This document shows positions 18,642 through 19,858 of a stretch of 40,270 nt of DNA, piece after piece. This DNA comes from a virus (Duplodnaviria > Heunggongvirae > Uroviricota > Caudoviricetes), in IMG/VR virus record IMGVR_UViG_2740892440_000005, positions 1 through 40,270 of that record; one strand, given 5' to 3'. Positions within the stretch are counted from its first letter, which is position 1. Every line of letters begins with the position of its first letter. Below the pieces are notes generated by a model. The model was given only the letters and a program-made list of their open reading frames with translations, made no database searches and was not told the origin of the DNA. The translations under genes were made by a program, and so were the position numbers.

Positions 18642-18965
18642 ATGAAGATGCCAGAAAAACATGACCTGTTAGCCGCCATTCTCGCGGCAAAGGAACAAGG
18701 CATCGGGGCAATCCTTGCGTTTGCAATGGCGTACCTTCGCGGCAGATATAATGGCGGTGCGTTTACAAAAACAGTAATCGACGCAACGATGTGCGCCATT
18801 ATCGCCTGGTTCATTCGTGACCTTCTCGACTTCGCCGGACTAAGTAGCAATCTCGCTTATATAACAAGCGTGTTTATCGGCTACATCGGCACTGACTCGA
18901 TTGGTTCGCTTATCAAACGCTTCGCTGCTAAAAAAGCCGGAGTAGAAGATGGTGGAAATCAATAA
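18642..18965 (+). CDS. S: Lambda-type class I holin S (107 aa) with Met1-Lys2-Met3 dual start
   Basis: Translation matches lambda S105/S107 as I recall it over essentially its whole length; lambda-like leader upstream. Confidence 0.95.
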
Positions 18966-19374
18966 TCAACGTAAGGCGTTCCTCGATATGCTGGCGTGGT
19001 CAGAGGGAACTGATAACGGACGGCAGAAAACCAGAAATCATGGTTATGACGTCATTGTAGGCGGAGAGCTATTCACTGATTACTCCGATCACCCTCGCAA
19101 ACTTGTCACGCTAAACCCAAAACTCAAATCAACAGCCGCCGGACGTTACCAGCTTCTTTCCCGTTGGTGGGATGCCTATCGCAAGCAGCTTGGCCTGAAA
19201 GACTTCTCTCCGAAAAGCCAGGACGCTGTGGCACTGCAACAGATTAAAGAGCGTGGCGCTTTGCCGATGATTGATCGCGGTGATATCCGTCAGGCAATCG
19301 ACCGTTGCAGCAATATCTGGCTTCACTGCCGGGGGCTGGTTATGGTCAGTTCGAGCATAAGGCTGACAACCTGA
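18949..19374 (+). CDS. R: Lambda-type endolysin R (lytic transglycosylase) with frameshifted C-terminus (141 aa as encoded)
   Basis: Matches lambda R through ...DRCSNIW; the lambda-like C-terminus [14 protein letters not shown]...REIEV is encoded in the +1 frame from 19321 to a TGA at 19422-19424. Confidence 0.85.
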
Positions 19375-19420
19375 TTGCAAAATTCAAAGAAGCAGGCGGA
19401 ACGGTCAGAGAGATTGAGGT

Positions 19421-19858
19421 ATGAGCAGAGTCACCGCGATTATCTCCGCTCTGGTTATCTGCATCATCGTCAGCCTGTCATGGGCTGTTAATCATTACCG
19501 TGATAACGCCATGACCTACAAAGAGCAGCGCGATAAGGCCACATCCACAATCGCTGACATGCAGAAGCGTCAACGTGATGTAGCAGAACTTGACGCCAGA
19601 TACACAAAGGAGCTTGCTGATGCTAACGCGACTATCGAAAGCCTCCGTGCTGATGTTTCTGCTGGGCGTAAGCGCCTGCAAGTCGCCGCCACCTGTGCAA
19701 AGTCAACGACCGGAGCCAGCAGCATGGGCGATGGAGAAAGCCCAAGACTTACAGCAGATGCTGAACTCAATTATTACCGTCTCCGAAGTGGAATCGACAG
19801 GATAACCGCGCAGGTTAACTACTTGCAGGAATACATCAGGACGCAATGCCTTCGATGA
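19421..19858 (+). CDS. Rz: Rz i-spanin (145 aa)
   Basis: [30 protein letters not shown]... matches lambda Rz N-terminus. Confidence 0.9.
19620..19805 (+). CDS. Rz1: Rz1 o-spanin lipoprotein embedded in Rz in the +1 frame (61 aa)
   Basis: [20 protein letters not shown] signal peptide with lipobox and Pro-rich mature part; AAGGAG RBS 7 nt upstream. Confidence 0.7.

Follow-up and report, generated by a model that had tools for sequence, protein, structure and literature searches.

Ion Torrent PGM data carry 'high-frequency indel' errors at about one per 1–2 kb of reference; these errors are mostly single-base, are typically deletions of C or G, and cause frameshifts in assemblies, while those that are strand-asymmetric lie chiefly in homopolymers of 2–3 nt and the errors as a class are often run-specific (Bragg et al. 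2013, PMC3623719). E. coli RCE02 (JUDW00000000), from a Crohn's disease patient, was sequenced on this platform with a 318 chip and a 200-bp kit and was assembled with MIRA 4.0; its authors' homopolymer fixer removes only ~60% of artificial indels, a ~2.5-fold reduction (PMC5517970). The RCE02 genome is a meta-assembly from three colonies. The stretch of DNA analysed here (the window, 40,270 nt) corresponds to positions 228638–268907 of JUDW01000006.1, and window positions 16421–22858 are 100% identical to that contig of GCA_001630825.1. It holds a prophage that is P22-like overall (Lederbergvirus-like), with HZ41 and IME10 as its nearest phages, and in which the endolysin gene R, as deposited, is interrupted by the loss of one G from a run of three.

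The change from GGG to GG fits the published PGM profile of single-base C/G deletions in short homopolymers (PMC3623719). We read the lesion as an artefact because of the sequencing platform, the local error rate and the sister errors in the same assembly, and because finished genomes lack the allele. As for R itself, we infer that the frameshift is very probably a one-base Ion Torrent artefact and not a sign of a damaged prophage. The R lesion matches a documented sequencing artefact, and nothing here is new biology.

As deposited, the R open reading frame starts with MVEINNQRK, follows lambda R through the motif DRCSNIW, which ends at W124, and then runs off frame (Table 1). The translation agrees with the first-pass annotation of this DNA, which had described an ORF that tracks lambda R up to DRCSNIW, reads 17 other residues and stops at 19374. 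The coordinates and the tail bear out its further statement that the last ~34 residues are replaced and that the lambda-like tail is intact in the other frame, with a TGA overlapping the Rz ATG: the C-terminal frame is open from 19323, and its TGA at 19422–19424 overlaps the ATG at 19421. That annotation had also placed the loss of a single G at about 19319–19321, and in an alignment with E. coli prophage FHI_NMBU_03, phage HZ41 and HK97 exactly one gap appears, at this site, where the window has TGGCT and the others TGGGCT. When this G is put back, the result is a 158-aa R that is identical to lambda lysozyme (PDB 1AM7) at 155 of 158 residues (E 6.9e-105), aligns with it over the full length (1–158 to 1–158) and differs from lambda by the substitutions G63A, S141N and D157E. 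No Pfam or NCBIfam model matches either the deposited or the restored form of R, so membership of the lambda R family rests on the PDB match.

Upstream of the frameshift, E19 in the motif AWSEGTD is conserved relative to 1AM7; we take this residue to be the catalytic glutamate of lambda R. In the deposited form, residues 125–158 of the fold are replaced by 17 unrelated residues, which leaves the C-terminal part incomplete. The Logan assembly of SRR1599278 is the sole record of this exact 141-aa product. JUDW01000006.1 has no R gene call at this locus and shows a one-base offset there.

Table 1. Lysis-cassette features and one-base indels in the window and in the host flank of the same contig; positions are those of the window unless a contig is named.
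Feature	Position	Strand	Description
Holin/antiholin S, lambda-type	18642..18965	+	107 aa, dual-start MKM...; Pfam PF05106 Phage_holin_3_1, E 2.4e-30; intact
Endolysin R as deposited	18949..19374	+	124 lambda-R residues + 17 out-of-frame residues = 141 aa
Missing-base site in R	19319..19320	+	GG; relatives GGG (TGGGCT to TGGCT)
R site on contig	JUDW01000006.1 ~247,956		Equals window 19319
R C-terminal coding sequence, other frame	19323..19424	+	S126–V158 + stop; lambda-like, intact
Rz i-spanin	19421..19858	+	145 aa; Pfam PF03245 Phage_lysis, E 2.7e-37; intact
Rz1 o-spanin lipoprotein (assigned from position), embedded in Rz	19620..19805	+	ORF 19590..19805; intact
Second one-base G deletion	2899..2900	+	TGGGCT to TGGCT; frameshifts a minus-strand 214-aa early-region gene
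Third one-base deletion	35535	-	AAGGCA to AAGCA; splits a lipoprotein gene
sbcB indel	Host flank, JUDW01000006.1		GG to G
yeeE/tsuA indel	Host flank, JUDW01000006.1		A5 to A6
plaP indel	Host flank, JUDW01000006.1		AA to A
yeeY indel	Host flank, JUDW01000006.1		CAGGGCT to CAGGCT

R is placed within an S-R-Rz/Rz1 cassette, where the 3′ end of S overlaps the start of R and the restored R frame ends at the ATGA at which Rz begins. An identical Rz protein occurs in many E. coli assemblies, beside a 158-aa R. We infer from its position that the ORF embedded in Rz is Rz1; a lipobox, LLGVSAC, can be read from its translation. Between the antiterminator Q and holin S lies an HNH-AP2 (homing-endonuclease-like) gene at 17642–18154 (+). 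Some relatives have tRNA-Asn and tRNA-Thr genes at this position, and ARAGORN found no tRNA genes in the window. In other prophages the HNH-AP2 protein (113/170 aa) is found beside lysis cassettes of three different types.

The prophage lies within the 5′ end of sbcB (window 39021–39155 (-) and 39266–40270 (+); flank 12873 onward), an insertion that we take to resemble those of phages that integrate into sbcB, for example Shigella phage Sf101. At its integrase end it provides a substitute 5′ end for sbcB (MTGTDKQPTFLFHDYETFG...), and at the right end a remnant encoding MMNDGKQQSTFLFHDY... adjoins dacD. The tailspike gene, at 36107–38584 (+), encodes 825 aa, with an N-terminus of the P22 head-binding type and a C-terminal part like Peptidase_G2; its ORF is open in the window, yet it is absent from the gene calls listed for the GenBank contig.

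Among finished sequences the GG allele of R has no counterpart. The R span measures 476 nt in the window and 477 nt in the matches listed (121 phage records and the best of 2,791 in E. coli), a length difference that is not chance, and GGG stands at the site in 12–13 covering relatives. Complete E. coli genomes offer 1,875 places that match a 71-mer round the site, none of them perfectly. Likewise, nothing in 5,426 complete E. coli genomes or 50,697 phage records matches a 39-mer across the deletion junction, designed such that every 28-nt seed must cross that junction. The natural frequency of the GG allele in finished sequences is 0 in ~2,000 copies.

Indels of the same type recur elsewhere in the assembly. 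The host flank tested was 7.7 kb of core chromosome from the same contig, just left of the window (flank 12700–20387) and running from sbcB to hisL, and it is 99.1–99.7% identical to the three complete genomes with which it was compared. This flank carries four one-base homopolymer indels, one each in the adjacent, conserved genes sbcB, yeeE/tsuA, plaP and yeeY; over the same flank the three complete genomes show 0–1 indels between each other. Of 5,424 complete genomes none has the plaP junction, and no more than one of 4,151 has the yeeE junction. The truncated yeeY product (185 aa) is recorded in a single Logan contig and nowhere else. That of plaP (110 aa) is present in 41 contigs of other assemblies (e.g. 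E. coli IS29) and in no complete genome, which suggests either a site of recurrent error or a real allele that is rare.

Within the prophage, the sister frameshifts at 2899 and 35535 are both contradicted by independent Logan assemblies of the same prophage. At 2899, GenBank reads CATATGGCTG (GG) and Logan SRR1599278 reads CATATGGGCTG (GGG), the Logan version restoring the 214-aa ORF. This early-region gene occupies 2847–3490 (-), upstream of an Ead/Ea22-like gene. Contig 3408 of Logan SRR2550166 equals window 31149–38767 (7,620 nt) except at 35535, where it has GG and the window G. The lipoprotein gene at this site (MKKSLLIIPLLLVGC..., 35167–35684 (-)) is divided in tblastn between frame -3 (residues 1–39) and frame -2 (residues 39–161), and the split looks like another assembly artefact. 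The window's copy of the lipoprotein seems to end at residue 122, at an in-frame stop; relatives have 161 aa. Over the 34.8 kb of the window represented by contigs _110 and _344 of Logan SRR1599278, no substitution separates the GenBank and Logan versions, only 8 one-base indels of G or C.

The lysis region itself shows the same imbalance between indels and substitutions. In an alignment of 1.55 kb, three one-base homopolymer deletions (18517, 18623 and 19319) and one substitution are private to the window, whereas nine relatives together have 42 private substitutions and no private indel; for all three indels to land among the four events private to the window, the hypergeometric probability is ~2.6e-4 (4/15,180). 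The context GGGCT to GGCT is common to three events (R, 2899 and yeeY), with 57 GGGCT/AGCCC sites remaining in the 49 kb examined, and G runs followed by C are the sites most often hit in the contig. One-base homopolymer-length differences from all or most close relatives are seen at 18517, 18623, 6727, 9137, 9596 and 20012; these six differences, in non-coding spacers, may be Ion Torrent errors or real variants. Non-coding DNA holds most of the other window-private indels, and real indels are also tolerated there, which counts against an artefact. The indel error rate in the contig comes to 0.27–0.5 per kb, corresponding to ~0.1–0.25 expected errors per 477-nt gene.

The first-pass annotation had offered two readings of the R lesion, a damaged cassette or a homopolymer error. 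The second is strongly favoured because the PGM/MIRA draft has one-base G/C-run errors every few kb, and the first now appears unlikely. On the favoured reading, the PGM would have read one G too few where three Gs precede a C, and the miscall would have passed uncorrected into the MIRA draft of E. coli RCE02. The actual prophage most probably specifies an ordinary lambda-type lytic transglycosylase R of 158 aa; its gene would belong to an undamaged S-R-Rz/Rz1 cassette, the R stop codon overlapping the start of Rz.

The main alternative is that a genuine and very recent one-base deletion inactivated R in an otherwise intact P22-like prophage, which we regard as improbable. Two assemblies from SRR1599278 data, GenBank and Logan, agree on GG at R, and the correction tool left this GG unchanged, both of which speak against an artefact. 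However, this agreement weighs little because the two assemblies probably share reads and because four core-gene frameshifts went uncorrected. We also rejected the agreement as proof that the deletion is real on the ground that the truncated yeeY product is likewise found only in Logan; the GGGCT to GGCT error in yeeY is probably common to both assemblies. The cassette and the downstream R frame bear no other lesion, as would fit a very recent event, and finished genomes do hold frameshifted phage genes, such as an annotated DUF2737 pseudogene. Against a real deletion stand the platform and the measured rate, which predict ~0.1–0.25 errors of this kind in a gene of this length on the contig, the contradiction of the two sister frameshifts by other assemblies, and the recurrence of the GGGCT context among proven or probable errors. 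In addition, neither the ~1,875 R copies in finished E. coli genomes nor the 121 phage records contain the allele.

A second and very unlikely alternative is that the R site is a hot spot where deletions naturally recur, or that the frameshift is programmed or phase-variable, with some R genes decoded through ribosomal slippage or toggled on and off. A search of IMG/VR, GTDB genomes and metagenomes with an exact 22-mer spanning the junction yielded two true carriers beyond the window, both with different R haplotypes; the GTDB match was rejected as chance, lying in an unrelated gene, and a longer 33-mer across the junction gave no match. The first carrier, IMGVR_UViG_2740892439_000020 (10735–11160), has a private G-run deletion of its own that truncates a replication gene (253 aa vs 276 aa). 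The second, ENA OPYQ01004834, is a 1,024-nt gut-metagenome contig with a coverage of 0.54, in which the site lies at 594–615 and an extra G frameshifts Rz. Relatives that naturally encode the shorter C-terminus, which the first-pass annotation had named as evidence against a lost base, thus exist only nominally, as two contigs that each carry a further G-run frameshift, and we rejected them as natural variants because of these additional frameshifting indels. The window and the IMG/VR contig with the R deletion have CCC in common at 18623, upstream of the S start.

The same G loss on three R haplotypes (the window, UViG_2740892439_000020 and OPYQ01004834) could be taken for a hot spot, but this is scarcely credible given the 0.5x coverage and frameshifted Rz of the metagenome carrier, the truncated replication gene of the IMG/VR carrier and the lack of the deletion in any finished genome or phage. 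A run of three Gs is far too short for phase variation, and the run at the R site is G3. A programmed ribosomal frameshift was rejected because the stretch between W124 and the stop (19318–19374) has no X XXY YYZ slippery heptamer and finished relatives all encode R in a single frame.

A real deletion would leave a 141-aa product with Glu19 but without residues 125–158, the last fifth of the fold; alignment to 8KEA, a distant PDB homologue, nonetheless extends to residue 137. Translation of R would end 47 nt before the Rz start and the ATGA coupling would be gone; Rz has its own GAGG upstream. The predicted phenotype would be holin triggering without murein degradation, and hence a lysis-defective prophage. 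A Crohn's-disease-associated E. coli would then carry an otherwise complete P22-like prophage with a newly knocked-out endolysin, a first step toward a domesticated, lysis-defective prophage with holin and spanins intact, though as one more inactivated prophage lysis gene it would be of minor interest.

Taking the R frameshift as an artefact, the finding is a caution for users of the assembly: this contig, and presumably other RCE draft genomes too, has ~1 homopolymer indel per 2–4 kb. Suspect 'pseudogenes' in the contig are R, the lipoprotein gene at 35535, the early gene at 2899, sbcB, yeeE, plaP and yeeY, and frameshifts in the RCE02 assembly should not count as pseudogenes.

Compared with the PGM homopolymer and high-frequency indels described previously (PMC3623719, PMC5517970), the R lesion is likewise a single G deletion in a 2–3-nt run, of a class that occurs at ~1 per 1–4 kb of reference. 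Such indels are often irreproducible between runs, a failure seen here at 2899 and 35535. Relative to the cassettes of HK97 and P22-like coliphages (HZ41, IME10, Sf6, CUS-3 and HK620-like prophages), R has 96–98.7% nucleotide identity; these relatives all have GGG and a 477-nt R, whereas the window has GG, and this prophage has the HNH-AP2 gene between Q and S, without tRNA genes there. Measured against lambda R (1AM7, 3D3D), the deposited copy is without one G after codon 124, and the locus otherwise has the same S-R-Rz/Rz1 order, the same S/R overlap and the same ATGA overlap of R stop and Rz start.
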